A stretch of 64,000 nt of DNA from a virus (IMGVR_UViG_3300028805_000076:8165-72164), one strand, 5' to 3'; shown: positions 3,969 through 60,543, counted from the stretch's first letter. A program made the numbers and translations. The notes: generated by a model from the letters alone, not told the origin.

Positions 3969-5669
3969 ATGATGGATAAAAAGCATAGGAAACCTAATGG
4001 GTATTGGAATAATTATGAGCATTGTTATGAAGAAGCACAAAAATACAAAACTAGAGGTGAATTTTCAAAAGGATGTGTTGGTGCATATTATTGGTCAAGA
4101 CTTAATGGCTGGATAGATTCTTTTGATTGGCTAGTGAATAATCAAATATTCGGCAATAACCAAGTAGATTGTGTTTATGCTTATGAATTTAATGACCAAA
4201 ATGCTGTGTATGTTGGTAGAACTTTAATGAGAAGAGTGAATAAGAGGGATTATGAACATAGACACAGAGAATATATAGACAAAAATGGTCATACTCACAC
4301 AAATTATGATGGTGTTTATAATTTTTCGTGTGATAACAAATGTGAAATTCCACCTATTAAGATTTTAAAAAATGATTTAACTCTTGAAGAAGGAAGGTTT
4401 TTTGAAAACGAATATGTTGAATCATACAGAAAAAATGGATGGGCAATTATTAATAAAGGAAAAACTGGAAAAAACAGTGGCTCTATTGGTTCATTAAATA
4501 AGGGAAAATGGAATGAAGAAAAATGTAAAATAATAGCATTAGATTGCAAGTCTTTGTCTGAATTTAAAAGAAAAAATGGTAGTGCATATGAAGCATCACG
4601 TATTAATGGATGGCTTAAAAAATTCGATTGGTTTGAAGATACTAGTCAACTTATTAAAAAAGCACTTCTACAAAAAGATAAAAAGTGGACTGAAGAAGAA
4701 TGTTATAATTTAGCAAAAACTTGTAAAACAAAATCAGAATTTCAAAATAAAAGTAGTAGAGCATATGCTGTTTCACATATTAATGGGTGGATGGAAAAAT
4801 ATACTTGGTTTGTTGATGGTTTCTCTTTAATTGAACCAATAAAATGGACTGAAGAAGAATGCAAAAAAATAGCGGTTAAATGTAAAACAAAATCAGATTT
4901 TAGAAATAAAAACGCTTCTGCATATTATTCAGCACTACATCACGGATGGATAAATAATTATGATTGGTTTATAGATGGAAATATAATTGCTGCTGACAAA
5001 CGAAGAATTTACACAGAAGAAAAATGTTTTGAAATTGCTCAGAATTGTAAAACAAAAGCGGAATTTAAAAAAGAAAATAATACAGCATATAATGTTTCAC
5101 GTATTAATGGTTGGATAAAAAACTATACTTGGTTTAAAAGTGGTATAGGAAAAGATAGAAAATGGTCAGAAAGTAATATTAAATTAGAAGCAACAAAATA
5201 CGTGCATAAACGTGAATTTATGCTTGGCTCAAACGTTGCTTATAGGAAAGCAAAAAAAAATAACATTTTAAAAACTATGTTTAAGATTATGAAATTTAAT
5301 TTTAAAGGTTATTTTGATGTACCTTGTTTCGATTTAGAAATCAATGCTGATATATCTATAAATAGTTATAAATATATACAATTCACACATGAAGAATCTC
5401 AAAAAATTGTGTTTAATTACTACAAAGAAGAAATGCAACAAGGAAATGGAATAAAAGTTAAAAATCTTGGATATGAATTTATTAGACTTACTGGTTTTTA
5501 TGATATATTTCCTAAAAAACCAAGTTGGGAAAAATTTAAAAAAGAATTTTGCCCAATTATTCTTTATACATTTGAAATAAAGGATGATATAATTCTTTTA
5601 ACACCAATTAATGTAAATGAAAATAATAAGATTTTCCAAAATGATAAAAATTTGATTTTGAATTTATGA
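3969..5669 (+). CDS. GIY-YIG nuclease-like protein with six tandem ~48-aa repeats
   Basis: VYAYEF...YVGRT...R...EH fits GIY-YIG; repeated KWTEEEC..CKTKSEF..SAY..S.INGW..Y.WF units. Confidence 0.5.
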   Translation: MMDKKHRKPNGYWNNYEHCYEEAQKYKTRGEFSKGCVGAYYWSRLNGWIDSFDWLVNNQIFGNNQVDCVYAYEFNDQNAVYVGRTLMRRVNKRDYEHRHREYIDKNGHTHTNYDGVYNFSCDNKCEIPPIKILKNDLTLEEGRFFENEYVESYRKNGWAIINKGKTGKNSGSIGSLNKGKWNEEKCKIIALDCKSLSEFKRKNGSAYEASRINGWLKKFDWFEDTSQLIKKALLQKDKKWTEEECYNLAKTCKTKSEFQNKSSRAYAVSHINGWMEKYTWFVDGFSLIEPIKWTEEECKKIAVKCKTKSDFRNKNASAYYSALHHGWINNYDWFIDGNIIAADKRRIYTEEKCFEIAQNCKTKAEFKKENNTAYNVSRINGWIKNYTWFKSGIGKDRKWSESNIKLEATKYVHKREFMLGSNVAYRKAKKNNILKTMFKIMKFNFKGYFDVPCFDLEINADISINSYKYIQFTHEESQKIVFNYYKEEMQQGNGIKVKNLGYEFIRLTGFYDIFPKKPSWEKFKKEFCPIILYTFEIKDDIILLTPINVNENNKIFQNDKNLILNL

Positions 5670-6353: not shown

Positions 6354-6384
6354 AATTATAATTAAATAAATTGTTATACACATA

Positions 6385-8629: not shown

Positions 8630-8690
8630 TGGTAAAAAATTTGGAGATGCCATAAAAAAGCATTAACTTTGCAGCGAGGGAAATAGATGG
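8630..8690 (+). promoter_or_regulatory. Bacteroides-type promoter with extended conserved motif TAACTTTGCAGCGAGGGAA
   Basis: -7 box TAnnTTTG at 8664-8671 followed by the conserved CAGCGAGGGAA. Confidence 0.45.
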
Positions 8691-9728: not shown

Positions 9729-10043
9729 ATGACAGTAGCAGAACCCCAATTTCACAAGTTAGCTGACGAATACGAGAAGCTTATCCGCAAATTTTTCAAG
9801 GTAAACAACATCAAGGAAGTTGTTTGCACCGACAAGAAAGAACACTTCTTTGACCTTATTGAAGTAAAGAAAAACGGCACAATGACTGTGTATGCTCACG
9901 GTTTGACCAAGACAACGTGGAAGAAGTTGTATTTCGATTTTACAGTTGATTATGCTATATGTCTTGCCAATATGGAGCACGATTTGTTCTTGCAGCAACG
10001 CCAAGGCAAACACGATAAGTTTAACTTTTATTTTTACGATTGA
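9729..10043 (+). CDS. hypothetical protein
   Basis: start set at ATG 9729, ~40 nt after the promoter; the track ORF began upstream inside the promoter. Confidence 0.5.
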   Translation: MTVAEPQFHKLADEYEKLIRKFFKVNNIKEVVCTDKKEHFFDLIEVKKNGTMTVYAHGLTKTTWKKLYFDFTVDYAICLANMEHDLFLQQRQGKHDKFNFYFYD

Positions 10044-14556: not shown

Positions 14557-14595
14557 AACCCACGAAAAAATAGGTAAAGTTATGAAGAAAGTATG

Positions 14596-14685
14596 TTGGT
14601 AGAGATGGATTTGAACCACCGAAGCCTCATAAGAGGCGACTGTGCCACTAAACACAGCCCCATTTGACCGCTTTGGTATCTACCG
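14596..14685 (-). tRNA. class-II-like tRNA (long variable arm), atypical 8-nt anticodon loop, anticodon unresolved
   Basis: acceptor cGGTAGA/TCTACCa, D arm CCA-AAGCGGTCAAA-TGG, T arm GGTGG-TTCAAAT-CCATC, variable hairpin GCCTC-TTAT-GAGGC; anticodon stem CTGTG/CACAG encloses TTTAGTGG. Confidence 0.45.
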
Positions 14686-14687
14686 AA

Positions 14688-14779
14688 TGGTTGATAGAGA
14701 GGGATTCGAACCCTCGAAGCCTCCGAAGAGGCGGTTGAGCTACTAACACAACCCCATTTGACCGCTTTGGTATCTATCG
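14688..14779 (-). tRNA. class-II-like tRNA, paralog of the previous, encoded CCA, anticodon unresolved
   Basis: same 5' half; T arm GAGGG-TTCGAAT-CCCTC; 3' end TCTATCA-A-CCA; loop region TTAGTAG. Confidence 0.45.
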
Positions 14780-17588: not shown

Positions 17589-17621
17589 CAAACAATTATT
17601 ACTAACCTTAAAAACACGTTG

Positions 17622-17670
17622 TAGCTCAAGTGGGATTCGAACCCACACGGTCGAATGACCAAGGGATTTT
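17622..17670 (-). tRNA. tRNA-Leu(UAA) 3' exon (positions 35-84)
   Basis: AAAATCCCT-TGGTCATTCGACCG-TGTGGGTTCGAATCCCAC-TTGAGCTA; near-identical to the 3' half of E. coli tRNA-Leu(UAA). Confidence 0.7.
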
Positions 17671-18451
17671 CTTACTACTCTTGCTTTGATACAAGCCAAC
17701 TTCGTGAGTTGTTGTAGTCTGGACTATTTCTTCACCATGCCAATTTGGTTTAGGTGTTTCGTATATAGTCTCTACGCCATTTAGGATAAATATCCATTTA
17801 GTAAGCCATCGCCAAAGTTTATGTCACCATAAACAAGGTTTCTGTTTGTTAGCGAAATTCTACTTCCCAATATTTTTTATTTATTGTTTTTTCCTTTCGG
17901 AAAGGAAGCACTCTTAATGTTTAGACCTCGATAATTATCTGTTTGTGCGTGGCAATTAGGGCATAAAATTTCAAGATTCTCTAATCTATCATCGGTTGTT
18001 ATTCCATTTTTATGGTGTAACTCCAATGGTATTTTTTTACCCATCCATTTTGTAAGCCCACAACATTCACATTTTTCTTCTTTAATTTGTTCTCTAAAAA
18101 GCCTATTTTTTAATTTATAAGAACTATAATGAGAATTCTCAACTAATAATTCATCGGTTTTTATTTGGCGTTTAGGATTAAATTTTAAACCTATATTCCA
18201 ACCTTTACCCGTAAAATGTGAAATATCAATTTCATACTTTTCAATAATTTTATGAAGAGTATTATAATTCCCACCACAAGGTTTTAAATTAAAAAACCTA
18301 AGCATTTCAGCAATACTATGTGAACATTTTGCTGCTTCTACATATTCTTCTTTCGTTCTTTCTTTTCTCATATCATATTACTTTAATAATAAATAGTACG
18401 ATATGAGAAAAAGTAATCACGAAATTATGACTATATTTTGGCCTTTACCAA
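17671..18451 (-). other. group-I-like intron in the tRNA-Leu anticodon loop (U34/A35), carrying an HNH ORF
   Basis: classic tRNA-Leu(UAA) intron position; exon ends in U, intron ends in G; R-like AGACUAUAUAC and S-like GAAAUAGUCC elements after the ORF. Confidence 0.6.
17877..18371 (-). CDS. HNH endonuclease (intron-encoded)
   Basis: CECCG...ELHHKNGITTDDRLENLEILCPNCH. Confidence 0.65.
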   Translation of the reverse strand: MRKERTKEEYVEAAKCSHSIAEMLRFFNLKPCGGNYNTLHKIIEKYEIDISHFTGKGWNIGLKFNPKRQIKTDELLVENSHYSSYKLKNRLFREQIKEEKCECCGLTKWMGKKIPLELHHKNGITTDDRLENLEILCPNCHAQTDNYRGLNIKSASFPKGKNNK

Positions 18452-18486
18452 AAGTCCCTAGTGTCTACCAATTCCACCACTGAGCC
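18452..18486 (-). tRNA. tRNA-Leu(UAA) 5' exon (positions 1-34)
   Basis: GGCTCAG-TG-GTGGAATTGGTAGACAC-T-AGGGA-CTT matches tRNA-Leu D-arm TGGTGGAATCGGTAGACAC and anticodon stem AGGGA/TCCCT. Confidence 0.7.
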
Positions 18487-20385: not shown

Positions 20386-20813
20386 TTAAATATACTCCAA
20401 TACCTCACAGTAGATTTTTTCCCTCTCTTCGTCAGTCAAGACAAGCTCTTCACAGTTCTCGTCTTCGAAAGTATTACCGCACCATACTTCGATGTTACCT
20501 TCTTCGTTAACTACGAGACAGTCCACACGAGCACCATTGTGACGAATGCCGAAGTCACTTACAGTGATGCAGTTGTCTTCATATTCTTCAAAAAGGTCGT
20601 AAATACAAGTTTCAACACTTCCAATAACGTTACTGTTTTCTTTTTTGATGTTAATACTTTATAGTGTTGCCACACACCATCATTTACACACTGTTGAGCA
20701 AGCTCTTCAGCTTCTTCCTTGGTTTTGAACTTCTTTGGGCTAATACACACACCTTGCTTTGCCAAAGCAATCAAGAACCATTTTTTATTTGAATTGTTAT
20801 TAGTTGTTGCCAT
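20386..20813 (-). CDS. hypothetical protein; two frames joined by a putative -1 frameshift at A AAA AAG
   Basis: 0-frame ORF 20559-20813; the -1 frame is open for 84 codons (20386-20646) with no ATG, starting exactly at the heptamer (minus strand, 20640-20646). Confidence 0.35.
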
Positions 20814-20829
20814 ACATCTTTGTTTTTTT

Positions 20830-20860
20830 CTTGGTGCAAAGTTACGAAATTAATAGCATA
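20830..20860 (-). promoter_or_regulatory. Bacteroides-type promoter (TAACTTTG on minus)
   Basis: plus caaagtta 20837-20844. Confidence 0.5.
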
Positions 20861-20924
20861 TCAGCAAGAAATAATACTGTATTAACAAATTTTTAACAGT
20901 ATAGTTAAATCCAAGTTAAAGTAC

Positions 20925-20970
20925 CAGAAATATTTTGTACTCTCACGAAAAAGCCCTATCTTTGCAGCGA
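20925..20970 (+). promoter_or_regulatory. repeat-module plus promoter TATCTTTGCAGCGAGGGAAAGAGCATACAGC
   Basis: -7 box 20957-20964; the first ~40 transcribed nt match copy 17510-17550. Confidence 0.45.
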
Positions 20971-21007
20971 GGGAAAGAGCATACAGCTACTTGTCATCAG
21001 AAGACAC

Positions 21008-21037
21008 AAAAAAAGCATCGAGCATAATGCCCGATGC
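21008..21037 (-). terminator. intrinsic terminator downstream of tRNA-Gln
   Basis: gcatcgagc-ataat-gcccgatgc with an A7 run on plus. Confidence 0.5.
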
Positions 21038-21074
21038 AAAAACATTAAAAAACAATAACTATTAACAAAGCTTG

Positions 21075-21147
21075 TTGTCCCTCCAAGACTCGAACTCGGA
21101 CTTTCAGACTCAAATTCTGACGTGCTAACCATCTACACCAAGGGACA
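21075..21147 (-). tRNA. tRNA-Gln(UUG)
   Basis: acceptor TGTCCCT/AGGGACA, anticodon stem TCAGA/TCTGA, loop ATTTGAG, T arm CCGAG-TTCGAGT-CTTGG. Confidence 0.7.
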
Positions 21148-21149
21148 GT

Positions 21150-22125
21150 GTTGAATTGCTTTTATAAATATATAAAAAAATAAAATATAAAGCAAATAGA
21201 AAAGAAAAAAAAAGTGCCGATGGGAGCCAACGTGCCAAGTGCCGTGCGATAGTGGGGACTTTCTCATATTCATAGGTCCGCACCTTGCAGTGCGTAGGGG
21301 CGATTGTTGTAGCTCTCATCGGCTTTTACCCAAGGGCCGACTGTGCGGCATAGTTATGCGGCATTAACTATCCTAACTCATTTATTTTGCCGCTAATAAT
21401 GAGATTATTGGAACCTTGGTTTCAAGGGGCATTCTCGTGGACTCGATGGCGTAGAAAGGCGCAAGTATCTGCTGTTCGGAGTGGCACAGTGACCGCGTAA
21501 AGCGTGTTATAGTTTGTGCAGACTCGGAATAATGTCTCTCGTGGGAACCGCGTAAACATAAACGTGCGGTAAAATGAGACTTACGTAATGCGTTGTAGCA
21601 CCTTGGATAGGATATAATCGCCTATCCACGAAAATGCCCGAAAATTTATATTTCCTTAGCTTGAATATCGAATTCTATCTTGTCGATGTGCATAACTTGT
21701 GCGCTTGTTGAGCTAATATTATACATGCAGTTTGTTCAATGCACCAAGTATAGAAGAAATTAACAGTTTTAATTGGGCTGTCCCCTAATGTGCTGCCTCA
21801 TAGCTGTAGGATTTACAAGTTACACTTACCTTTAGATTCATTTCTCAATTAATAATTTTGATTTACCCTCAAAGGGGTCGGTCTCTTGCATTCATCGGTA
21901 TGTCGGTCAGTTAAGTTGTTGATTATTACCGTATATAAAATTATAATAAAATCTATGATTCTACTACATTTTATTTCTTGCTTCAACGAAACACTGCTTT
22001 TTAGGAACATAAAGTTCGGCCATCCACAGTTGGTTTCTCCACAAGCGTAAATTCGGTAGTACGGCTACCTATTTTTTATTAGAATATGTGTTAACTGTTA
22101 CAAACCCCACTGTTTGGTTGGGCTA
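21150..22125. ncRNA. ~1-kb ORF-free GC-enriched region; candidate large structured RNA
   Basis: no ORF of 60 aa or more on either strand apart from one that overlaps the tRNA; many local hairpins (e.g. ggatagg-atataatcg-cctatcc); composition visibly richer in G+C than the flanks. Confidence 0.3.
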
Positions 22126-22251
22126 TCACTTTGCCCAATAACTACCCTCTTTGGCGAAGATGCTGTAACGAATCTCGTCCTTACCAAACTTGTGCGGTAC
22201 TGCGAAAACGCGCTTGCTTTCTACTGCTGCATTAAAACGTCCTTTTGCCAT
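22126..22251 (-). CDS. small protein (41 aa)
   Basis: ATG 22251 ~40 nt below promoter 22294-22301. Confidence 0.3.
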   Translation of the reverse strand: MAKGRFNAAVESKRVFAVPHKFGKDEIRYSIFAKEGSYWAK

Positions 22252-22284
22252 AGTTGTTAGTTGTTTTTATTTGTTTTATTAATT

Positions 22285-22315
22285 TTGACGATGCAAAGAT
22301 AGGGTATTTATCGTT
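22285..22315 (-). promoter_or_regulatory. Bacteroides-type promoter
   Basis: plus caaagata 22294-22301. Confidence 0.5.
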
Positions 22316-22344
22316 ACCATCCAAGAAATTTTAGGTCTTTAACA

Positions 22345-22620
22345 TTATTTTAACACTTCGTGAACAATATTCAAACTTGTGACTACTGAATGAGTGTCAT
22401 TTGTATTATAAGTGTACTCACAATACATAACGTCATTGCCATCAGAATTGGTTATCTTAACAACACATTTGTTTTCATTTGGGTCAAGATTCTCAACAAC
22501 GATTGACAGATTTTCGCCCAAAACTTTTTTTAAGTTTGCCACTAAAGATTGCGGAAGATAGGAAATAACCATTCCCACACCAATTCCCAAACGATTGAAA
22601 ATATCTTGTAATACTGTCAT
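22345..22620 (-). CDS. hypothetical protein
   Basis: 91-aa ORF. Confidence 0.45.
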   Translation of the reverse strand: MTVLQDIFNRLGIGVGMVISYLPQSLVANLKKVLGENLSIVVENLDPNENKCVVKITNSDGNDVMYCEYTYNTNDTHSVVTSLNIVHEVLK

Positions 22621-40931: not shown

Positions 40932-41057
40932 ATCTTAAAAATTGTAAATATATCGATATTATATAAAAAAAATATTAGAATAAAAAAAAATTACTATTAT
41001 ATTATATTTTAATTTAGTTCTAAAATACCTTATATTTATTATTATAAATATAAAATT

Positions 41058-44000
41058 ATGGAGATAACTAATAGTATTGTCAAGAATTGTTTAACTGAAT
41101 ATGTACAAGATAGGTTTCAATTATTGACTGAAGACCAAAAAAGAACAATTCGCAACAAAATAACAAGGGGTGTTTCATCAAGAGTACCTCATCGTGTCGA
41201 TGATACCAAAATGATTGAGAAATTGGTTGATGATATATGGAATACATATGTTCTTCACCCACTTCACGATGGGGTTCATCATAGGCAAAATGATGAAATC
41301 ACTATAATCAATCAGAACATTGAAAGATTGATTCCATATGTTATAAAACAAAAAAGTGATAATGAATCTGAAAATGTTACTTACTATATTACAACAAATC
41401 CAAGAATTCGTAACAGTTGGGAGAACTTGATACAATCACAAAGGCAGAACAGAAATGTAACTTTGTGGGGAAACGATGGTGGAGATTTGACTTATTGGGA
41501 TGTAAACAAACGTTATAATGATGCTGTAAATTCTGCTAAAAACACTAAAATTGAAGGCAAGTACCATTACTCTGTTTACAAGGTAGAAAACTACGATACA
41601 CCAATTGAAGGGTTGGGAATGACAGTTAGTGAACTTGGACAGTATACTGGAGGAAAAGGCTCGCTAAAATGTGTTCCGTTGTGCTATACACAATCTCTAA
41701 ATACGTATAACAATTACACAAAAGGCAATGAATACAACATGTATGCTCTACTGCGTGACGGTTGGCAGAATGAACCATGCAAAATGACAGAAGGTTATCC
41801 ATTGGACAGCTATGGTTTGTCAATACTATTTGTAATTGTAGACCCTAATGGAAACATTGCATACAACAATGTAAGATGGAATCACGGACCAAAGGGGTAT
41901 CCAAGAAGTGTTGACAATATATTCACTTATAAGGAATTGGCAGAAATTGTTGGTAGCGATGTAATGGAACAAATTAACACTACTGCTGATGTGGACCAAT
42001 CGTTACGTTTTACATATGAGGTTGAAACTAAACTTAAAGAAGGTCAAGATATTAACGACATATTTATGTCTAAAGGTACAGAACGCTGTGGTTATATACC
42101 AGTTTGTTATATGCATAAATGGAATTTTCTTGATTCTTCAAAGTCTTTGTTATGTGACGAATGGTTCGATGGTGTTGGTAGTTTTCATCCAAATGGTTTT
42201 AGTTATGTCTATAAAAGCAACTTATATAACTTTATTGATTTTAATGGAGAACTTGTTTGGGATAGACCGCTTGAAGAATGGTTTAATCACATTGATTCGT
42301 GGTCATTTGATGTTTATGGCTTGTGTAGGGTTATGAAAGACTATCATTATAATTGGTTAAAGACTGATGGTACACTATTATTTAATAACCAACAACAAGA
42401 ATGGCTAGATAGAGCTAGTGATTTTCATAATCAAATTGCTTATATAAAATTACATGGTAAATACAATTATATTAGAACTGATGGTTCATTGGTTTGGGAT
42501 TATGATGACACACAATATTGGTTTGATGATGTTGCTGATAAAGGTTTTAATAACTCCAATGTTGCTATGGTAACAATTGACAGATTGGTTAATTTATTGA
42601 AAACAGATGGAACACTAGTTTGGAATAAACCACCTGAATTATGGTTTAATCACATTGTTGCTAATGATAGTAACAAAGATATATACCAAGTAGAACGTTC
42701 CAATAAATATAATTTCTTAAGAATGGATGGTACATTGGTTTGGCAGAAACCTTTTAATGAATGGTTTACATCAATTGGAGCATTCTATAATGGTTTGGCA
42801 AAAGTAACTACATCATTTGGTGAAACATATAATTTTATTAAAATGGACGGAACATTGCTGTTTGACGAAACAGATGATACAAAACATTTTGATAAAATTG
42901 GTAATTTCGCTAGTGGACCAGCATTTGTTTGCATAAATAATAAATATAATTTCATTAGAGAAGACGGAACTTATATTTGGGATAAACCAATAGGGCAATG
43001 GTTTGATAGTGTTAGCGAATATTTTAGAGAAGGTTTTGCTTGTGTGCGCAAGAAAGGAGTTGCAAATTTTATATCTACAGAAGGAAAGTTGTTATGGAAG
43101 AAACCATTAAAAGATTGGTTCAGTGGTGTAGACCCTTTTTATCAAGGGATAGCACAAGTACGAAAGAATGGCAAAAATAATTACATACGAACAAACGGGA
43201 AATTAGTTTTGAATAAACCATTTGATGAGTGGTTTTTCTGGATGGGTAAGGTTATAAATAGCCCTAATATATTTATTGTAAGAGATGCAATGAGATATAA
43301 CTATATTAAAGATGGTGAATTGTTATATAACCAACCGCATACAAAATGGTTTACTGATATAAGCAGAATGCTTGATAAAATCAATGATAATATATCTGGC
43401 TTCCTTGTACAAAAGGGATATAGGCACAATTTCTTGAAACTTGATGGAACACTTCTCAATAGCAGTTTCGTAAGTAAAAGTGAATTAGAATCTATAATTC
43501 GAAGAATAAAACATCAATCGTCCAATATACAAGAATCCTTAAGGGAATATGTAACTAAAAATTTACAACTTCTTACTGAAGACCAGAAGAAGACAATTCG
43601 TAACAAGATTGCAAGAGGTATTGTTTCAATGACTAATCTTGATGTAAACAGTACAGAAGTACAATCGTTAGTAGATAATGTTTGGAACATTTACGTTGTA
43701 CACCCAATTGAAGGCGAAAAGCGTCAGAATGACGAGATTACTGTAATTAATCAGAACATTGAAAGATTAGTACCGTATGTATTGAAGCAAAATGATTCTG
43801 AAAATTACTTTATAAGCAGCAATCCAAGGATTCGTAAAAGTTGGGAAAACTTGATACAAACCCAAAGGCAGAACAGACAAACCAATATATGGCAAGACAA
43901 TGATAATTTGCTTTATTGGAACACAAATAAAAAGTATAATGATGCAATAAATGCAGCAACAAGTGAAGAAATTAAAGGCAAGTATCATTATAGTGTGTAT

Positions 44001-47000
44001 AAGATAGAAGATTACAATACACCAATTGAAGGCTTGGGAATGACTGTTACAGAACTTGGCAAGTATACTGGTGGACAAGGCGCAGTTCCTTTGTGTTATA
44101 CACAATCTCAAGGTACATATAACAGTTATACTGAAAACAATCAATTTAATATGTATGCTGTGTTGCGTGATGGATGGCAGAATGAACCTTGTGAGATTGA
44201 AGAAGATTATCCATTGGATAGCTACGGTTTATCAATGATATTTGTAATTATTGATGAAAATGGAAAGATTGAATACAGTAATGTTAGATGGAATCACGGA
44301 CCAAGAAATTACAAAAGAAGTGTTGACAACATATTCTCGTACAATGAATTGAGGGATATTGTTGGAAGTAATGTAATTAAGCAAGTTGGGGCAAATGTAG
44401 AAATAGACACATCGTTACAATTGACATATGAGGTAGAGAAAAAGTTGAAACAAGACTTATCTATTTACCAAATATTTGGTAATGTTGGCTTTTTTAATGA
44501 CGGTTTGGCAAAGGTTTTCTATTCTGGTTTATACAATTACATAGATTCATCTGGAGACTTACTAACTGATGAATGGTTTGACTTTTGTTCTCCATTTCAA
44601 AATGGGCTTGCTGTGGTACGAAAAGGACATAAGGCAAATTATATAAAGACAGACGGTACTTATTTATACAACACAGATAATACTGATGATTGGTTTACTA
44701 TGGCAAGTTATTTTGATGAAAATGGTTCTGCTATCGTTGGAAAGAATCATAAATACAATTTTATTCTAAAAGATGGTACATTCATTTGGAAAGGTGAATG
44801 GTTTGATTGGGTTGGTGATTTTATTAATGATATTGCTCTAGTTAAAAAAGATAACAAAGCTAATTTTTTAAGATTTGATGGTACATTAGTTTGGAATTAT
44901 GAAAATACAAATGATTGGTTTAATGATGCTACTAATTTTAGTGCGGATTATCATGTCTCATTGGTTCAAAAAAATGGTAAATTTAATTATTTGAAGACTG
45001 ATGGTACATTTGTTTGGAATTATCTTGACACAAAGAAATGGTTTGATGGTTCTTATCATTTTTTTGATGGTATAGCTCAAGTTAAAGTCAACTATAAACA
45101 TGAAGAAAAATGGAACTACCTCAAACTAGATGGAACTTTTTTATGGAAGAAGCCACTAAAACAGTGGTTTGATAATGCTTATAGGTTTGATGAAGGTGTT
45201 GGTATAATAGAATATAAAGGCAAAAAAAATTGGTTAACAGCCAAAGGTGAAATATTTTGTCAAGATATGTGGTTTGATGGGGTTGGAACATTTCACGAAG
45301 GGATTACTAAAGTAGAAATAAACGGTAAATTTAACTTTTTAAATAGTAATGCTAAGTTATTGTGGGGGTCTTACGATGACACAACAGATTGGTTTGATTA
45401 CGTTGATAGGATTGAGCAAGGGTATGCTAAAGTAAGAAAACAAGGACGTTGGAACATATTACGACCAGATGGTAAATTATTGTGGGATTATTCAAATCCT
45501 CAAGATTGGTTTAATAATATTGGACCACTTGATAAAGAAGAAATAATATCTGTTTCAAAAGATGGTAAAAGTAATTATTTAAATCTTCAAGGTAAACTTC
45601 TAAACCAAAATTGGTTTGATAGTTGTTTTGTATTTGAGAATGGAGTTGGTAAAGTTCAAAAAGACCAACACATGAATCTAATCAGAAAAGATGGCACATT
45701 TGTATGGAACAGACCATTGAAAGATTGGTTTATTTTCATTGGCGAAGTAGACGATTTTGGTTGTGCAGAGGTATACACACATTATCAAGGTGCAACTGTT
45801 GGTAACGTATTGAAAATAGAAGATGGTACGTTACTGTGGAAGAAAAGTCCAAAATTCTGGTTTCGTTACATTGACGTTAATGAGATATTACCAAATGGTG
45901 TAAAAGGTTATAGAGTCTCAAAGGCAATAAAGACTATGATGAAATATAACTTCTTAAAGTTAGATGGTACTCTTCTTTTCAAAACATTTTTATCTGTTCA
46001 CAGCTATAAGTTGGCAATGAATGCTTTAAGTAATAATGATAATCAAATAATACAAGAATCTTTACGAGAATATGTTAAAGATAAGTCGTTGTTGGCTGAA
46101 GCCGATTCACGAATTAAGGGAACTAGAAACACAATTAAAAGGGGTATTGCTGCAATAACCAAACTTGACATTAATGACCCTATTGTAGAAAACTTGACAA
46201 ATGATGTTTGGAATACTTATGTTGTTCATCCTATCGCAAATGAAAATCGTCAGCTTGACGAATATATTGCCATTAGGAATAATGCTGACAGACTTCTTAT
46301 GTACGCTGTAAAACAGAACCAAGATGGTACATATTACATAACAAAAAATCCACGTTTGAAAAATGGCTTTGAGAATCTTATTCAAGCACAAAGGAAAGAT
46401 AATACAAAACAAATACTTGATAATAATGCAAATTTGTTCCAATGGTATAACACACAGAAATACAATCAAGCATTGGAAAACTTACAAGCCAATAGTAAAA
46501 AAATACAAGAAGGCAAATATAGTTACAAAGCATATCCAATCACTGATTTTTATGATAACATTAAAGGCTTGGGAATGACTGTTGAAGACCTTGGGGAGTG
46601 GACTGGTAGTGAAGAAGCTGTCGAATTGTGCTATACTCAATCTGAAGATACGTATAACCAATATACACACGGCAACAAATACAATATGTATGCTTTATTG
46701 CGCCAAGGTTGGCAAGACGAGCCTTGTGAGAAAGGAGAAGGTTATCCTTATGACAGCTACGGTCTTTCTATGATATTCGTAATTATCGATTATAATGGTG
46801 ATATAGCTACAAGTAATGTTAGATGGAATCACGGTGACAATTCTTATTCTAATGTAGATAATATGTTCACCTATTCTAAATTAGTACAAATTGTTGGTTC
46901 TAACATACTTAATAAAATACATTGTACATATAATGATGACATAACTCGTAATATGTCACTTATAGTAAGACTTGAAAAAGCTTTAAGCAATATTGATGCA

Positions 47001-48194
47001 ACTGATGTTGATTCATTTTGCGATGCTTTCGATAACATTTCACGCCAATATGAAGATTTGGAAAATGTTGAGCTATTTACTCTTGGAAGTGATAGGCTAA
47101 TAACCGTAGAATATGAAGAAACATATGCAAATATATATGATATAAAAGAGAAGCATTTTATTTCCGATGAATGGTTTTCTAGTATTTCGAATTATTCATG
47201 CGGCTATAGTACAGTACAATTCTTAAATGATGGAACATGGAATTTTATTGATGAAGAAGGCAATTTTTTAAATGACAAGCGTTATGACCACTGTTATGAT
47301 TTTGACAACGGATACGCTGTTGTTAAAAATAATCAAGAAATGTATGAAGTAATAAATATAAAAGGTGAATCATTATTTACCACAGATAGACGAGTCAGGT
47401 TTATTGGAGAAGAACGTGTAGCTTATGAAGACATTAATTATTCTTTATTATTGGATATGCGCGGTAAAAAAGTAGTTGACACATATTTTGATTATATTGG
47501 TTATTTTTACTGCGAAGGATATATTACAGTAAGTGTTGATAATAGAGTTAATTTTATAGACGCAAATGGAAAATATTTATCAGACGTTTGGTATCTTGAT
47601 GTTGAAAGACCATTTTCAAACGGCTGTGCTATAGTTAAATATGATAATGGTATGATAAATATGATTAATAAAAAATGTCAAAAGCTACTTAAAGAAGATG
47701 CTATAAGATGGAAAACAATGTATGATTATGTATATGAGAATGTATTGTACTATATATTTGATTTAGGCAGTCGTATTAAAGAATTTGTAAAAACAAACGG
47801 TCAAATTATATGTGATGCTCTAACTTTTAGTGATTCAAATAAACTTAGGAGGTTAAAAATACAATTTTTAGATTATAGTTGGAACTATTTAAAAGATGAT
47901 GGTACAATGTTATTACCATATAATTGTTATGAAATTTCAAATTTCTATGAGCATGATTATATTCAAGATATAAAGTTTGCAATTATCAAAAAAGAACCAA
48001 GTAAAGAATGTATTATTGATGTAAACGGAAATGAAATGACAGAAGAATATATATCAATGTATCCTTTAACAAGAACTGAAAACTATGTTGCTTTAGGTGT
48101 AAAAGGTCCAGATGATGGTTACAAAATTGATTATCAGTTTAACGCAATACCAATAAGTAAGGATGAATTTGTTAAGATGATAATGGATAATTAA
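41058..48194 (+). CDS. giant protein (2378 aa) of three tandem ~820-aa modules: unknown N-terminal Cys/His domain + KWG-like beta-propeller repeats
   Basis: module N-termini LTEDQKRTIRNKI...NQNIERL..YV.KQ at ~aa 1, ~820 and ~1660; conserved block YHYSVYK..GLGMTV.ELG.YTG...CYTQS..YN.YT..N.YNMYA.LR.GWQ.EPC...YP.DSYGLS..FVI.D.NG....NVRWNHG; then dozens of (K)YNFI..DGT..W..P...WFD....F..G.A.V repeats. Confidence 0.6.
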   Translation: MEITNSIVKNCLTEYVQDRFQLLTEDQKRTIRNKITRGVSSRVPHRVDDTKMIEKLVDDIWNTYVLHPLHDGVHHRQNDEITIINQNIERLIPYVIKQKSDNESENVTYYITTNPRIRNSWENLIQSQRQNRNVTLWGNDGGDLTYWDVNKRYNDAVNSAKNTKIEGKYHYSVYKVENYDTPIEGLGMTVSELGQYTGGKGSLKCVPLCYTQSLNTYNNYTKGNEYNMYALLRDGWQNEPCKMTEGYPLDSYGLSILFVIVDPNGNIAYNNVRWNHGPKGYPRSVDNIFTYKELAEIVGSDVMEQINTTADVDQSLRFTYEVETKLKEGQDINDIFMSKGTERCGYIPVCYMHKWNFLDSSKSLLCDEWFDGVGSFHPNGFSYVYKSNLYNFIDFNGELVWDRPLEEWFNHIDSWSFDVYGLCRVMKDYHYNWLKTDGTLLFNNQQQEWLDRASDFHNQIAYIKLHGKYNYIRTDGSLVWDYDDTQYWFDDVADKGFNNSNVAMVTIDRLVNLLKTDGTLVWNKPPELWFNHIVANDSNKDIYQVERSNKYNFLRMDGTLVWQKPFNEWFTSIGAFYNGLAKVTTSFGETYNFIKMDGTLLFDETDDTKHFDKIGNFASGPAFVCINNKYNFIREDGTYIWDKPIGQWFDSVSEYFREGFACVRKKGVANFISTEGKLLWKKPLKDWFSGVDPFYQGIAQVRKNGKNNYIRTNGKLVLNKPFDEWFFWMGKVINSPNIFIVRDAMRYNYIKDGELLYNQPHTKWFTDISRMLDKINDNISGFLVQKGYRHNFLKLDGTLLNSSFVSKSELESIIRRIKHQSSNIQESLREYVTKNLQLLTEDQKKTIRNKIARGIVSMTNLDVNSTEVQSLVDNVWNIYVVHPIEGEKRQNDEITVINQNIERLVPYVLKQNDSENYFISSNPRIRKSWENLIQTQRQNRQTNIWQDNDNLLYWNTNKKYNDAINAATSEEIKGKYHYSVYKIEDYNTPIEGLGMTVTELGKYTGGQGAVPLCYTQSQGTYNSYTENNQFNMYAVLRDGWQNEPCEIEEDYPLDSYGLSMIFVIIDENGKIEYSNVRWNHGPRNYKRSVDNIFSYNELRDIVGSNVIKQVGANVEIDTSLQLTYEVEKKLKQDLSIYQIFGNVGFFNDGLAKVFYSGLYNYIDSSGDLLTDEWFDFCSPFQNGLAVVRKGHKANYIKTDGTYLYNTDNTDDWFTMASYFDENGSAIVGKNHKYNFILKDGTFIWKGEWFDWVGDFINDIALVKKDNKANFLRFDGTLVWNYENTNDWFNDATNFSADYHVSLVQKNGKFNYLKTDGTFVWNYLDTKKWFDGSYHFFDGIAQVKVNYKHEEKWNYLKLDGTFLWKKPLKQWFDNAYRFDEGVGIIEYKGKKNWLTAKGEIFCQDMWFDGVGTFHEGITKVEINGKFNFLNSNAKLLWGSYDDTTDWFDYVDRIEQGYAKVRKQGRWNILRPDGKLLWDYSNPQDWFNNIGPLDKEEIISVSKDGKSNYLNLQGKLLNQNWFDSCFVFENGVGKVQKDQHMNLIRKDGTFVWNRPLKDWFIFIGEVDDFGCAEVYTHYQGATVGNVLKIEDGTLLWKKSPKFWFRYIDVNEILPNGVKGYRVSKAIKTMMKYNFLKLDGTLLFKTFLSVHSYKLAMNALSNNDNQIIQESLREYVKDKSLLAEADSRIKGTRNTIKRGIAAITKLDINDPIVENLTNDVWNTYVVHPIANENRQLDEYIAIRNNADRLLMYAVKQNQDGTYYITKNPRLKNGFENLIQAQRKDNTKQILDNNANLFQWYNTQKYNQALENLQANSKKIQEGKYSYKAYPITDFYDNIKGLGMTVEDLGEWTGSEEAVELCYTQSEDTYNQYTHGNKYNMYALLRQGWQDEPCEKGEGYPYDSYGLSMIFVIIDYNGDIATSNVRWNHGDNSYSNVDNMFTYSKLVQIVGSNILNKIHCTYNDDITRNMSLIVRLEKALSNIDATDVDSFCDAFDNISRQYEDLENVELFTLGSDRLITVEYEETYANIYDIKEKHFISDEWFSSISNYSCGYSTVQFLNDGTWNFIDEEGNFLNDKRYDHCYDFDNGYAVVKNNQEMYEVINIKGESLFTTDRRVRFIGEERVAYEDINYSLLLDMRGKKVVDTYFDYIGYFYCEGYITVSVDNRVNFIDANGKYLSDVWYLDVERPFSNGCAIVKYDNGMINMINKKCQKLLKEDAIRWKTMYDYVYENVLYYIFDLGSRIKEFVKTNGQIICDALTFSDSNKLRRLKIQFLDYSWNYLKDDGTMLLPYNCYEISNFYEHDYIQDIKFAIIKKEPSKECIIDVNGNEMTEEYISMYPLTRTENYVALGVKGPDDGYKIDYQFNAIPISKDEFVKMIMDN

Positions 48195-48371: not shown

Positions 48372-48392
48372 TTGAATTAAAATCATTATATT

Positions 48393-49124
48393 ATGTTATA
48401 TCTAAAATTATTTCAAACGGAACAAGAAAGACAAGCGTGTACAGAGACACAAGAATATGTGTCTTATACAAAAGAAAGTGATAAGGTGAATATACACCCA
48501 AAAGCATTATTCTGTAAATTAACACTTAACAATGGTGAAGTGGTTGAAATTGAAGGTAGTGGAGAATTAACATATGCTATGACAATACCATATACAGCAA
48601 CAACAGTCAGTGTTGAAATTGGTGACATATGTACAAGTATTAGTTATAGTGTTTTCTATGGTTGTAGTGGATTAACAAGTGTAACAATAGGAAATAGTGT
48701 TACAAGTATTGGTTATGCTGCTTTCCGTAATTGTAGTGGTTTAACAAGTTTAGATTTAGGCAATGGTGTTACAAGTATTGGTAGGGAGGCTTTCTATGGT
48801 TGTAAATCATTAACAAGTATAACGATACCAGATAGTGTTACAAGTATTGGTGAGGGTGCTTTCGAAGATTGTAATCCATTAACAAGTGTAACAATAGGAA
48901 ATAGTGTTACAAGTATTGGTGCTACTGCTTTCTATAATTGTAATAATTTAACTAGTATTACCTCATTAGCAACAACAGCACCATCAATTTCAAATAATAC
49001 ATTCCGATATGTAAAAACAAGTGGTACATTATATGTTCCACAAGGTAGTAGTGGATATGATACTTGGATGCAGAATGCAGACTATTATTTAGGAAAATAT
49101 AATTGGACTAAGGTAGAGCAATAA
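48393..49124 (+). CDS. BspA-type leucine-rich-repeat protein (copy 1)
   Basis: repeated NSVTSIG.xAF.xC..LTS.TI units. Confidence 0.55.
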   Translation: MLYLKLFQTEQERQACTETQEYVSYTKESDKVNIHPKALFCKLTLNNGEVVEIEGSGELTYAMTIPYTATTVSVEIGDICTSISYSVFYGCSGLTSVTIGNSVTSIGYAAFRNCSGLTSLDLGNGVTSIGREAFYGCKSLTSITIPDSVTSIGEGAFEDCNPLTSVTIGNSVTSIGATAFYNCNNLTSITSLATTAPSISNNTFRYVKTSGTLYVPQGSSGYDTWMQNADYYLGKYNWTKVEQ

Positions 49125-49709: not shown

Positions 49710-51230
49710 TTAAAAATCGTTAATAGTGCTTTCCATCATTTCTATATCCACCTCACCTTTATCTATACGCTTGCTTTCCAACAAGAAGAAAGCCTCTGTT
49801 TTAAGCTTGAACGCTTCTTTTATTTCATCGCCAACGATTCTCAATACAAAGCCTTCACGAGGTACTTTATTATGACAGAGAGGTTCATTCTTTTCCATAA
49901 AGAATCTTTTTTCCTTACCAAGAAGTTCAAGTACATTTTCATTCCAATGATTTTTGGTATCAACTTCTGGATAAAAATCAGCCAACTTGCCACGGAAAAG
50001 CACGTCAAGTACGAAAAGCCTGTCAGCAATTTCTGGGCGTTCATTCATTAGATTCTTTGTCCAATTTATCACTTCATCAACTTCCCATTCTTTTTTAGAG
50101 CCATCTTCGTTAGTTGTTGTTATTCTATATGGCATAAATTTGTTATGACCAACTTCACATCCATAATCGTAATTTCCAGTAGCAAACATTTTTTGCAAGC
50201 CAGTTTCATAACCAAAAATTTCGCCATAAACGGTCATACCTTCTTGTATAGCCCCTTTCAATATCTCGTTATATTCAGCCCATACGTCTGTTTTATAATA
50301 ACATTCTGTGCTATTTTCGTTGATATATTGGTTTCTAATTTGGTGTCTAGATGAATATATGGTATCATATACATATTCTATCTTTTGGAATTTGATAGGC
50401 AATGAATGGCAAACCTTATTCACTATGTTGGTTAGCCAACCAAATGGTGTACTATATTGCTTTGGTCTTTTTGTTAGAACATTTGCAAATATGGCAGAAG
50501 TGCCATGTATTTTAGTAGTAATAATTACTTCAGTATCTGGTTTAATCAAATTAAAATTCTTCTTAAGTGGCTGTGTGTCATAATGAAAGAAGAATTGACC
50601 TGGAATCATTCGGTCATATCGTTTGATTTTATTTTGGCTCCACGTATATTCTCGTACAATTCTTTTTTTCGGTGGTATATATGGAACATATGCTTTGATA
50701 AACAATTCACCATTGACAGTATCAAAGTCGTAACCGATATAATCCTTCAAATTGATATTAACTATTTCTGGGCAAAACTTTTCCATTGTTTCTATACTAA
50801 ACAAGAAACCGCTAGAAGCAACACCTCTAAGTCTAATCATTTTTACTCTTCGGTGTTTGGTAAAAAAACCAGTGTTTTCTTTAATCAACGATTCCAATCT
50901 TGAAACTTCTTCCAAATCTTGATTTGTTTTTGCCAATTGAAGCTGTGTAAGGAGTTTACCTACTTGAACAGCATTTGCGTTCTTGTCGAATTCGCTTTGT
51001 TCAAACAGATTATTTACTGACAAGAACCGTTCATTCAATTGTGTTTCATTTTCAGCATAGAACATCAAATCACCTTGCTTTACCAAATCTCGTCTGACTA
51101 CAATTGTTTGCCCGTTTACTTTTGTTGATGCAAGAAAATCAGAATTTGGTATAGGTTCAATCTCGCCAACCTCAATGATTGACGCACAGTATTCGTGGTT
51201 TATATGTTCTGATTGTTCTAGTATTTTCAT
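49710..51230 (-). CDS. RNA ligase, Rnl2-like nucleotidyltransferase with a ~200-aa N-terminal extension
   Basis: motif I TKIHGTS (T4 Rnl2 is KIHGTN), motif IV EGFVLR, motif V FKLK. Confidence 0.55.
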   Translation of the reverse strand: MKILEQSEHINHEYCASIIEVGEIEPIPNSDFLASTKVNGQTIVVRRDLVKQGDLMFYAENETQLNERFLSVNNLFEQSEFDKNANAVQVGKLLTQLQLAKTNQDLEEVSRLESLIKENTGFFTKHRRVKMIRLRGVASSGFLFSIETMEKFCPEIVNINLKDYIGYDFDTVNGELFIKAYVPYIPPKKRIVREYTWSQNKIKRYDRMIPGQFFFHYDTQPLKKNFNLIKPDTEVIITTKIHGTSAIFANVLTKRPKQYSTPFGWLTNIVNKVCHSLPIKFQKIEYVYDTIYSSRHQIRNQYINENSTECYYKTDVWAEYNEILKGAIQEGMTVYGEIFGYETGLQKMFATGNYDYGCEVGHNKFMPYRITTTNEDGSKKEWEVDEVINWTKNLMNERPEIADRLFVLDVLFRGKLADFYPEVDTKNHWNENVLELLGKEKRFFMEKNEPLCHNKVPREGFVLRIVGDEIKEAFKLKTEAFFLLESKRIDKGEVDIEMMESTINDF

Positions 51231-51236
51231 AGTAAG

Positions 51237-51905
51237 CTATTCTAATTTTTGGCATTCTTCTTCAGAGTACAAAGAATGCAGTTTATTAATCCACCAAGCG
51301 GTTTTGACTTTAACTGATGGTCGTTGTTGACCTTTCATTAATGTTGAACGTTTGAAAACAACACCTTCCTTGATATTAAGTGGGTTGCCAATATCGGTTA
51401 TTTTTTGTATTTGTGAAATTATGTCATAATCTAAAGACCCAACATATACAAGTTGAGCCACTTCAATTCCACAATCAGAAAACAATTTCCAAAAAATATT
51501 TGGTTCTATATATCCTTTCTTTTTCAAGAAAACATCAATTAGAGCCAAATGCATATCATCACCTTCGACATGTTTACCAGCAAAAGATTGCTCACCATAC
51601 CATTCAAAAAAGAATGTTATTTCGTCAATGCCGTTAAACACACCTTTTTTCTTTGAATTTTCAGCAATAATATTTTCAAGTATTTCTCCGTATTTAGATG
51701 CTTTGAAAAATTTTACTGCGTCTCCAAGCTGTTCGCTGTTTTCATCTACTGTAACTGTTCTTGAGCCATAATTAGCCCATTGCTTCTTTTTACAATTATA
51801 TGCCGCACAAAAATTTTGCCCGTCCAACTTATTAAAACCCCAAACAGTTTCACCTTTCAGTGTACCATCGTCTTGTATTCTAGGAATACTGTTATAATGT
51901 TTCAT
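51237..51905 (-). CDS. second covalent nucleotidyltransferase (RNA/DNA ligase-like adenylyltransferase domain)
   Basis: motif I NKLDGQN (KxDG), EGVVFK, VKVK. Confidence 0.45.
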   Translation of the reverse strand: MKHYNSIPRIQDDGTLKGETVWGFNKLDGQNFCAAYNCKKKQWANYGSRTVTVDENSEQLGDAVKFFKASKYGEILENIIAENSKKKGVFNGIDEITFFFEWYGEQSFAGKHVEGDDMHLALIDVFLKKKGYIEPNIFWKLFSDCGIEVAQLVYVGSLDYDIISQIQKITDIGNPLNIKEGVVFKRSTLMKGQQRPSVKVKTAWWINKLHSLYSEEECQKLE

Positions 51906-51916
51906 ATGAATTAACC

Positions 51917-52186
51917 TTAAGTAGCGTGTTTAAAGAATTTACGGATTACTATCCAATACGTGCACACTAAAGTGAATACAGAAATCCCATGCTCAACATA
52001 AATGAATTTAATGTCTTCGTTAGAAAAATCCTTGCAAATCAAATTACGGATTATTACTAAAGCAAAGCACACAATATACATTACAAATAAAAATATTTGT
52101 TGCCAAGGTTTAATACTCATATTTATTATTATTTTGTTCTTATTATTCGTCACTGCCAATATATTTGCATAAACAAATAAAGGCAA
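51917..52186 (-). CDS. small membrane protein
   Basis: two hydrophobic segments. Confidence 0.4.
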   Translation of the reverse strand: MPLFVYANILAVTNNKNKIIINMSIKPWQQIFLFVMYIVCFALVIIRNLICKDFSNEDIKFIYVEHGISVFTLVCTYWIVIRKFFKHAT

Positions 52187-59711: not shown

Positions 59712-59910
59712 AAAAATCTATAAATATATTATATCTAAAATTATTTCAAACTGAAGCAGAAAGACAAGCGTGTGCTGAAACACAAGAATATGTGTCATAT
59801 ACAGTAGAAAGTGATAAGGTGAATATACATTATGAACCATTTTTTGCAAATTAACACTCAATAATGGAGAAGTTATAGAAATTGAAGGAAGTGGCGAATT
59901 AACAAATGCT

Positions 59911-60543
59911 ATGACAATTCAATATTCAGCAACAACAGTTAGTGCTGAAATTGGCAATAAATGCACAAGTATTGGCGAATATGCTTTTGAAAATATTGAA
60001 AGTGATGCTGGTTTTGGTTTGCTAACAACAGTCAATATTTCTAATGGTGTTACAAGTATTGGTGAGGGTGCTTTCGCTTATTGTACATCATTAACAAGTG
60101 TTACCATACCAAATAGTGTTACAAGTATTGGTGCAGTTGCTTTCTATGGTTGTACCTCATTATCAAGTATCACAATTCCAAATAGTGTTACAAGTATTGG
60201 TGAATGTACTTTCCAAAATTGTACATCTTTATCTAGCATAACAATACCAAATAGTGTTACAAGTATTAGTCAATTGACTTTCGATAATTGTACATCTTTA
60301 TCTAGTATAACAATACCAAATAGTGTTACAAGTATTGGTAAAAATGTTTTCAATAGTTGCACATCATTAACAAGTATTACATCGTTAGCCACAACAGCAC
60401 CATCAATTTCAAATATTACATTCAGAAATGTAAAAACTGGTGGTACATTATATGTTCCAAGTGGCAGCAGTGGTTATGACGTATGGATGGGAACTGGAAT
60501 CTATTATTTAGGAAAATATAATTGGACAAAAGTAGAACAATAA
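59911..60543 (+). CDS. BspA-type LRR protein (copy 2; the N-terminal region upstream is degenerate)
   Basis: same repeat units and identical C-terminus; 59737-59910 is homologous to the copy-1 N-terminus but lacks the ATG and has a 1-nt deletion. Confidence 0.5.
   Translation: MTIQYSATTVSAEIGNKCTSIGEYAFENIESDAGFGLLTTVNISNGVTSIGEGAFAYCTSLTSVTIPNSVTSIGAVAFYGCTSLSSITIPNSVTSIGECTFQNCTSLSSITIPNSVTSISQLTFDNCTSLSSITIPNSVTSIGKNVFNSCTSLTSITSLATTAPSISNITFRNVKTGGTLYVPSGSSGYDVWMGTGIYYLGKYNWTKVEQ

Follow-up and report, generated by a model that had tools for sequence, protein, structure and literature searches.

A 64,000-nucleotide (nt) stretch of a viral genome (IMGVR_UViG_3300028805_000076:8165-72164), referred to here as the window, contains beside its tRNA-Gln gene an interval of about 1 kb, 21148-22125, in which hardly any open reading frame (ORF) is found. 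What does this interval contain? A reading of the sequence alone had proposed a single large structured RNA. Our analysis showed that the interval is a composite of two unrelated things, a 176-bp insertion at 21928-22103 and a conserved non-coding block at 21215-21927. The conserved element does not include the right-hand 176 nt, which are what is left of a transposon. The block itself is a lineage-restricted element that probably acts at the RNA level.

The whole window was scanned for gaps between ORFs with the standard code and a cut-off of 60 amino acids (aa). The longest gap was 21320-22344 (1025 nt), followed by gaps of 577 and 560 nt, which confirms the claim that this is the longest ORF-free stretch. 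The only ORF of at least 60 aa in the interval was 21125-21319 on the minus strand, overlapping tRNA-Gln, also as claimed. In each of its six frames the interval has TAA, TAG and TGA throughout. No in-frame TAG occurs in the long genes of the window, and therefore the standard code applies in it. The described enrichment in G+C was found at 21150-21750 (0.42–0.47, against 0.33–0.36 in the flanks) but not in the right part, 21750-22125 (0.35–0.37). Because neighbouring coding DNA reaches equal values (0.45–0.50), the G+C content of the interval is coding-like and not exceptional.

The TnpB mini-element at 21928-22103

The insertion was missing from all 20 related contigs (L002, L004 and L007 in alignments, L009-L025 by blastn), in which its flanks are otherwise 87–97% identical. 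These contigs have an empty site reading CAGTGGGG / TAATAATC or a variant of it (in another notation, ...TGGGG / TAATAATCAACAACTTAAC), where the slash marks the point of insertion. Positions 1-146 of the insertion are 96.6% identical to positions 4580-4725 of another Lak-like contig, L027, at the 3′ end of the gene for a 399-aa TnpB, and positions 147-173 match L027 2827-2853, where the full-length element has its left end, with 96% identity. Since both ends match L027, the insertion is an internal-deletion derivative made of a left end and a right end. The full-length element (approximately 2827-4725 of L027) contains a 105-aa ORF with a MerR-type helix-turn-helix (HTH) and the 399-aa TnpB ORF, which has the domains OrfB_IS605, Cas12f1-like_TNB and HTH_OrfB_IS605. 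No recognisable serine-recombinase catalytic domain was seen in the upstream 105-aa ORF. The last 22 TnpB codons, which read ..IGSRTTEFTLVEKPTVD(D/G)RTLCS followed by a stop, overlap the conserved guide-RNA region in L027.

In INPHARED, the matches to 20800-22400 came only from Prevotella Lak megaphages and were restricted to 21974-22087; the mini-element alone matched, and there was no match for the block, the tRNA or the ORF41 gene described below. In Lak-C1 the matching segment sits directly 3′ of a 377-aa TnpB. Six further copies of the mini-element sequence were obtained by a pattern scan of IMG/VR. RNAalifold on seven copies from seven contigs showed that 6 of the 20 predicted pairs were kept through changes on both sides, as expected for the scaffold of a TnpB guide (omega) RNA.

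The sequence of the junctions, given for the minus strand, is CAGTGG[GGT]TTGTAAC...TATATAC[GGT]AATAATC. Both the window and L027 have GG at each junction, and there is no target duplication. IS607 elements, whose termini carry GG, insert at GG without duplicating the target (PMC6188088). A tblastn search with the Lak-C1 TnpB against the 64-kb window gave chance matches only, in the block as elsewhere, and no TnpB or TnpA was present in cis or anywhere in the window. Because TnpB is absent from the window, the mini-element is considered non-autonomous.

By its sequence, 21928-22103 is an internally deleted, non-autonomous copy of an IS607/IS605-family TnpB element that was inserted at GG in this genome only, and it is predicted to encode a 3′ omega-RNA-like scaffold without a TnpB gene. 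It is an ordinary kind of thing, clearly documented here. It resembles the IS607/IS605 TnpB elements and their omega RNAs in having both ends of a full-length element, in its GG junctions without target duplication, and in a predicted structured RNA that overlaps the TnpB 3′ end and shows compensatory changes. It differs from them in having neither TnpB nor TnpA and in a right end cut down to 146 nt, and is a deletion derivative resembling a miniature inverted-repeat transposable element (MITE). With a right end of this length, the 5′ part of a full omega RNA may be missing. If the insertion were read through from the ORF41 promoter, 21928-21908 on the minus strand would give a flank-derived guide, AAUAAUCAACAACUUAAC, and this guide would match the uninterrupted site of every sampled relative. 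An orphan omega-RNA-like copy with such a predicted guide, matching the empty site of the relatives, is of some interest. The remnant makes up 18% of the interval and supplies its only RNA structure with clear covariation. For genome scanning, it shows that a "longest ORF-free stretch beside a tRNA" can conceal a recent transposon insertion.

The conserved block and its cassette

The block was present in all 20 related contigs. Rumen metagenomes, of cattle and other sources, supplied these relatives, which comprised a 387-kb IMG/VR contig together with contigs from ENA, Logan and JGI. From this origin and from the matches to Lak phages, the window belongs to a Lak-like megaphage of the rumen. 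Most homologues are 95–97% identical to the window, and the most diverged of these relatives was L004. In IMG/VR and JGI metagenomes, exact 20-30-mers were matched by a single contig of 387 kb, a scan of GTDB genomes gave one chance 23-nt match in Pedobacter, and nhmmer and blastn searches of the block against other Lak-like loci found no match. The contigs bearing P0015 and P0017 end short of the cassette. A mosaic breakpoint was seen at approximately 20900-20950: on its right the relatives are 95–97% identical, and on its left their nucleotide diversity is 0.1–0.2 or they have different genes.

Over the 641 aligned sites of the block, the window and L004 differ by 60 substitutions (9.4%). 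The third codon positions of the two neighbouring ORFs have 39 in 133 (29%; 29/92 in ORF91 and about 10/41, or ~24%, in ORF41), and the intergenic region between ORF91 and ORF41 has 18 in 93 (19%). The difference between the block and the third positions is significant (Fisher p=1.3e-8). The changes in ORF41 are mostly synonymous. When the close relatives were compared with one another, the nucleotide diversity of the block was 0.002–0.03, equal to or below that of the neighbouring genes. By this comparative evidence the block is under purifying selection.

The block is also non-coding under any genetic code, and the non-coding claim of the sequence-only reading stood when alternative codes were included: stops close all frames, indels of relatives break the frames, and no 3-nt periodicity was found among the variable sites of the block. 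The indels among the relatives are of 1, 1, 2, 4, 12 and 14 nt. Genes read with codes 4 and 15 were considered and rejected; the best ORF under code 15, 21168-21498 on the plus strand, is frameshifted in relatives by 1-nt indels. Among small ORFs, all close relatives have only one uninterrupted, of 22 aa at 21285-21353 on the plus strand, and the distant relative described next has not conserved it. A tblastx comparison of the block between the clade of the window and this relative gave no match.

The distant relative, L033, was found by a search with the 257-aa neighbour protein (62% identical), and proteins of its clade are only 35–62% identical to those of the window. Its cassette starts with a promoter, TATCTTTGCATCGTG, followed by a 39-aa basic ORF that is syntenic to ORF41 and shares with it the core KRxxxAVPxKxG. 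The Smith-Waterman score of the two mini-proteins was 39, a score reached by 2 of 5000 shuffles, which supports a relationship between them; BLASTP found no match for either. Then come a block of about 870 nt without called genes (G+C 45%), a clean hairpin on the gene strand (GCCGATGC..GCATCGGC followed by T10) whose base has the same sequence as that of the long hairpin H1 in the window, and tRNA-Gln(UUG) beside the block, a terminator and an inward-pointing promoter. The AT spacer just upstream of tRNA-Gln has the 17-mer TTTTTTTATATATTTAT in both. The block ends can be aligned at 21317-21392 of the window and 9552-9636 of L033 (68% over 88 nt, E=0.013), and a 7-bp helix in this aligned end shows a compensatory change (ATAGTTA/TAACTAT against GTAGTTA/TAACTAC). 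At the ORF-proximal end there is a hairpin CCCTCAAAGGGG in the window and CCCCTAATGGGG in L033.

The cassette, which is conserved in the two clades, has as its order a promoter, a gene for a basic protein of ~40 aa, an untranslated block of 0.7–0.9 kb, a hairpin with U9-10, tRNA-Gln with a putative promoter of its own, and a terminator (Table 1). The putative tRNA-Gln promoter on the minus strand consists of TTTG at 21196-21193 and, after 20 nt, TATATTTA at 21172-21165; it would be active upstream of the tRNA. H1 and the U9 tract form a terminator-like end of the predicted ORF41 transcription unit, and the tract is kept in the relatives as A8-A9 (plus strand). From the stop codon of ORF41 as far as the U9 tract (21214-21206), neither a terminator scan nor the sequence itself showed a terminator. 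The ORF41 transcript would therefore have to run on through the block, which would form its long untranslated tail.

Table 1. Features in and around the interval, with coordinates in the window.
Feature	Position	Strand	Remarks
-7 box TATCTTTG, Bacteroidota-type promoter (predicted)	20957..20964	+	points into the interval
Conserved leader GCAGCGAGGGAAAGAGCATACAGC after the 20957 promoter	20964-21014	+	
Predicted intrinsic terminator of tRNA-Gln, GCATCGGGCATTATGCTCGATGC then T7	21015..21037	-	
tRNA-Gln, anticodon UUG	21074..21147	-	ARAGORN; Rfam tRNA model, 56 bits
AT-rich spacer with putative tRNA promoter	21148..21205	-	read from sequence
U9 tract (A9 on plus) directly 3′ of hairpin H1	21206..21214	-	
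Conserved non-coding block	21215..21927		in 20/20 related contigs
Long hairpin H1, 12-bp base GCCGATGGGAGC/GCTCTCATCGGC	21216..21324		
Domain closed by 15-nt long-range helix GGGCATTCTCGTGGA / TCCACGAAAATGCCC	21427..21639		14/15 paired
Mini-element, right-end part: last 22 TnpB codons (..IGSRTTEFTLVEKPTVDGRTLCS, then stop) and downstream right end; omega-RNA-like	21928..22073	-	
Mini-element, left-end remnant of the same IS	22074..22103	-	27 nt match the L027 left end
ORF41, conserved 41-aa basic protein MAKGRFNAAVESKRVFAVPHKFGKDEIRYSIFAKEGSYWAK	22126..22251	-	
-7 box TATCTTTG of the putative ORF41 promoter	22294..22301	-	

The position of the interval beside tRNA-Gln and a plus-strand promoter at 20957 that points into it were both found as the sequence-only reading had described them. 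The -7 box consensus of the promoters of the window is TAnnTTTG, which is of the Bacteroidota type. The 20957 promoter is not specific to this region, because the window has eight near-identical copies of this promoter-plus-leader unit (TATCTTTGCAGCGAGGGAA...), at 8671(+), 10809(+), 15476(+), 17509(+), 20964(+), 23830(+), 25573(-) and 9096(-). Most of them stand just outside a terminator and are aimed antisense into the preceding transcription unit. Most units then carry a short palindrome and an A-run. An inward promoter-plus-leader layout was also seen in L033 at 9830-9900.

These comparisons also bear on whether the block might be a functionless decaying remnant of a pseudogene, an intron or an old mobile element, whose seeming conservation would come from kinship or recombination. 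All but one of the homologues are 95–97% identical, phage mosaicism is evident 200 nt away, the interior of the block cannot be aligned with that of L033, and there is little structural support, all of which would suit a remnant. However, a remnant would fit poorly with the comparison to L004, in which the third positions of ORF41 and the intergenic region differ at ~24% and 19% and the block at 9.4%, and with the presence of an ORF-free block of 0.7–0.9 kb at the same place in a clade of such low protein identity. We therefore consider a mere remnant improbable.

RNA structure, strand and likeness to known systems

The helices named by the sequence-only reading are real: GGATAGG/CCTATCC lies at 21605-21627 and the hairpin CCGCGT...ACGTGCGG at 21549-21570. 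The fold energy of H1 on the plus strand is −49 to −55 kcal/mol in four sequence variants (−54 in the window), so that its stability is retained across them, and on the minus strand it is −35 to −41. When 200-nt windows were compared with shuffled sequences, 21200-21399 (z=−3.9 on the plus strand) was the only strongly negative one inside the block; the remaining windows (21300-21899) had z-scores from +1.0 to −1.2 on that strand. The fold stability beyond that of shuffles thus arises mainly from H1. The long-range helix of 21427-21441 with 21625-21639 has four substitutions in L004 and is still paired at 14 of 15 positions on the plus strand. In small hairpins, exchanges of G-C/G.U or A-U/G.U type were seen that would preserve pairing on the plus strand. 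Support extends to one long hairpin and a few helices only. The picture of an ornate RNA of 1 kb was not borne out, with the stability coming mainly from H1 and the variable pairs more often broken than kept.

Of the possible products, an RNA of the minus strand, which is the gene strand, is the most likely functional one, and we put it forward tentatively: it would be a stable non-coding 3′ part of the ORF41 transcript, possibly together with the basic mini-protein. It is ranked first because a tidy unit is conserved in two clades. Transcription from the promoter at 22301 would read ORF41, cross the block and stop at H1/U9 (21324-21206), tRNA-Gln would be transcribed from its own putative promoter, and the block RNA may work together with the co-encoded ORF41 protein. 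The transcription of the block, its functional strand and the ORF41 partnership are each points that we infer. As to the proposal of a large structured RNA, the constraint and the lack of coding stand and an RNA-level role is the most economical one, but an ornate RNA and a known family do not.

A number of results weigh against this gene-strand RNA. The whole block has z=−3.2 on the plus strand and −1.6 on the minus strand (20 shuffles each), and without H1 it barely beats shuffles (−1.7 plus, −1.6 minus; range −1.6 to −2.7). The L033 block likewise has z=−4.9 antisense against −3.6 on the gene strand (20 shuffles each). H1 is more stable on the plus strand (−54 kcal/mol) than on the minus strand (−35 to −41), the plus strand is the G-rich strand of the block, and several hairpin substitutions are G.U on plus and A.C on minus. 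Among the variable predicted pairs, 11 were compatible and 24 broken on the plus strand, and 9 and 15 on the minus strand, in 14-21 homologues. Slid controls gave 1-12 compatible pairs, and for high-probability pairs the ratio of compatible to broken was about 1:1 to 1:2. With 87–97% identity, the homologues are too similar for a real covariation test, and the power of these counts is low. The interiors of the blocks of the window and L033 cannot be aligned and may be different elements, and phage mosaicism could inflate the divergence contrast between the block and third positions. A structured RNA is not demonstrated on either strand, because the fold outside H1 is near that of shuffles and the pairs are mostly broken.

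A global MAFFT alignment of the clade of the window with L033 was unreliable (48% identity). Complementarity of the block to tRNA-Gln did not exceed that of shuffles.

Alternatively, the product might be a plus-strand RNA, antisense to the surrounding genes, which would start from 20957 and run through tRNA-Gln and A9; H1 would be its stable 5′ domain, with ~600 nt of additional structure after it. The sequence-only reading had proposed essentially this model. It is ranked second because of the fold energies, the G-richness and the wobble patterns, and we consider it possible, but doubtful. It would account for the better folding of this strand in both clades and in H1, for the excess of G over C and for the plus-only wobble substitutions at 21258, 21350, 21553, 21565, 21590, 21628 and 21637, and its promoter and leader are conserved, with the same arrangement in L033. 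However, an unbiased count over the helices predicted on both strands gave 12 plus-type and 8 minus-type wobbles, which is not significant, and the z-score without H1 is only −1.7. The promoter is generic, its eight copies being aimed into ordinary coding units. The relatives are without a plus-strand 3′ end; the only terminator-like site, 22055-22069, falls within the genome-specific insertion, and its T-run was made by the deletion junction. A covariance model of 21318-21500 (R1), built on the plus-strand consensus fold, also found no match in L033 or other loci.

Besides an RNA on either strand, the block could act as DNA, as a replication origin (an alternative already named in the sequence-only reading), a packaging site or a protein-binding platform. 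A DNA role would agree with nucleotide constraint without coding and without strong RNA structure, with an AT-rich tract (21148-21214) beside the G+C-rich block and a promoter pointing in, and with short direct repeats, ACCGCGTAAA and TGCGGCAT, each present twice. But these two-copy 10-nt repeats are not an iteron array, and no iterons were found; the sign of the GC skew is the same on both sides of the region, with no switch; the constraint is spread across ~700 nt and not limited to motifs; and, unlike the cassette, the interior of the block is not conserved between clades. We regard such a role as improbable too, to about the same degree as the remnant.

A known large RNA (GOLLD, ROOL, HEARO/IscB omega RNA or OLE) or a group I or II intron would be suggested by the tRNA adjacency, as often seen for GOLLD and ROOL in phages, and by the group I-type intron elsewhere in the window, in tRNA-Leu. 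Against this, a cmscan of the whole window with Rfam 15 at gathering thresholds returned tRNA only, and a scan of 20800-22400 at E≤10 gave nothing relevant (no GOLLD, ROOL, HEARO, OLE or introns), contrary to the membership that had been suggested. For introns the Rfam test is weak, because the scan also misses the ORF-containing tRNA-Leu intron. There are no flanking exons, and no GUGYG with a domain V pattern. We hold membership in any of these families to be extremely unlikely.

The two intron classes, which the sequence-only reading had raised as an alternative, were each rejected. For a group I intron, tRNA-Gln is intact, no gene is interrupted, and the scan, weak as it is, gave no match. 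For a group II intron there was no Rfam match either, reading of the sequence revealed no domain V-like hairpin, and the plus strand starts with GUGCC.

GOLLD and ROOL often adjoin phage tRNA genes (PMC5737381, PMC12286853). Like them, the block is a phage non-coding stretch of 0.7–0.9 kb beside a tRNA (68 nt from tRNA-Gln in the window), in a rumen-derived genome. Unlike them, it does not match their covariance models, shows no multi-stem architecture supported by covariation among its closely similar homologues, is linked to a gene for a ~40-aa protein and ends at a terminator-like hairpin; theirs are Firmicutes phages, whereas the lineage here is a Prevotella-type megaphage. Long bacterial RNAs derived from 3′ untranslated regions (UTRs) are similar in having one promoter, a short ORF, a long conserved UTR, and a hairpin with a U-tract, but the known ones are usually below 300 nt and act by base pairing. 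In the tRNA cluster of T4, the species 1 and 2 RNAs, of ~120–140 nt, are processed from a tRNA precursor. They too are non-coding, are not tRNAs and lie beside phage tRNA genes in the same direction of transcription, but the block has 5-6 times their length, and a hairpin with U9 and a putative promoter part it from the tRNA.

It is a more speculative idea, and on balance an unlikely one, that the block represents an undescribed class of megaphage RNA of 0.7–0.9 kb in a fixed cassette with a basic peptide of ~40 aa and tRNA-Gln, acting as RNA or as a small ribonucleoprotein. If true, this would be a counterpart, in phages of Bacteroidota, of the tRNA-adjacent GOLLD and ROOL, with a fast-evolving interior and conserved ends. 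Nearly all that is known of the Lak-like megaphages of Prevotella in gut and rumen comes from metagenomes, and their non-coding DNA is essentially unmapped territory; a full-text literature search on Lak phage non-coding RNA gave no result. The block, with its constraint and its place in a cassette of two diverged clades, is a concrete and testable candidate for a long non-coding RNA in phages other than those of Firmicutes, in which GOLLD and ROOL were found.

Other features of the window

The tRNA-Leu(UAA) gene at 17621-18486 on the minus strand has its anticodon loop split by a 781-nt intron, which contains a 164-aa HNH-type ORF (18371..17877) and the group I-like core motifs AGAGACTATA and AGAAATAGTCC. 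The gene was missed by default ARAGORN and by Rfam. At 14595-14779, also on the minus strand, there are two adjacent tRNA-like genes of unusual length (91–92 nt), one a tRNA-??? with the four-base anticodon 'tagt' and the other a tRNA-Thr(AGU).

A 20-nt palindrome, AGGTACTTAATTAAGTACCC, was found in intergenic positions at 6366, 7112, 7787, 14470, 20074 and ~23850. The segments 48390-49090 and 59725-60510, 11.3 kb apart, are 77–86% identical and contain 69-nt tandem repeats (48590-48989 and 59940-60408). A 2393-codon ORF at 41013-48194 on the plus strand consists of many diverged repeats of ~40 aa, and the DNA repeat families at 42.2–45.7 kb in it share ...TGGTTT... motifs. Several of the longest ORFs of the window have no in-frame TAG. 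On the minus strand, 49710-51929 would be a stop-free frame of 739 codons if the TAG at codon 230 were read through, and may be either two genes or one recoded gene.

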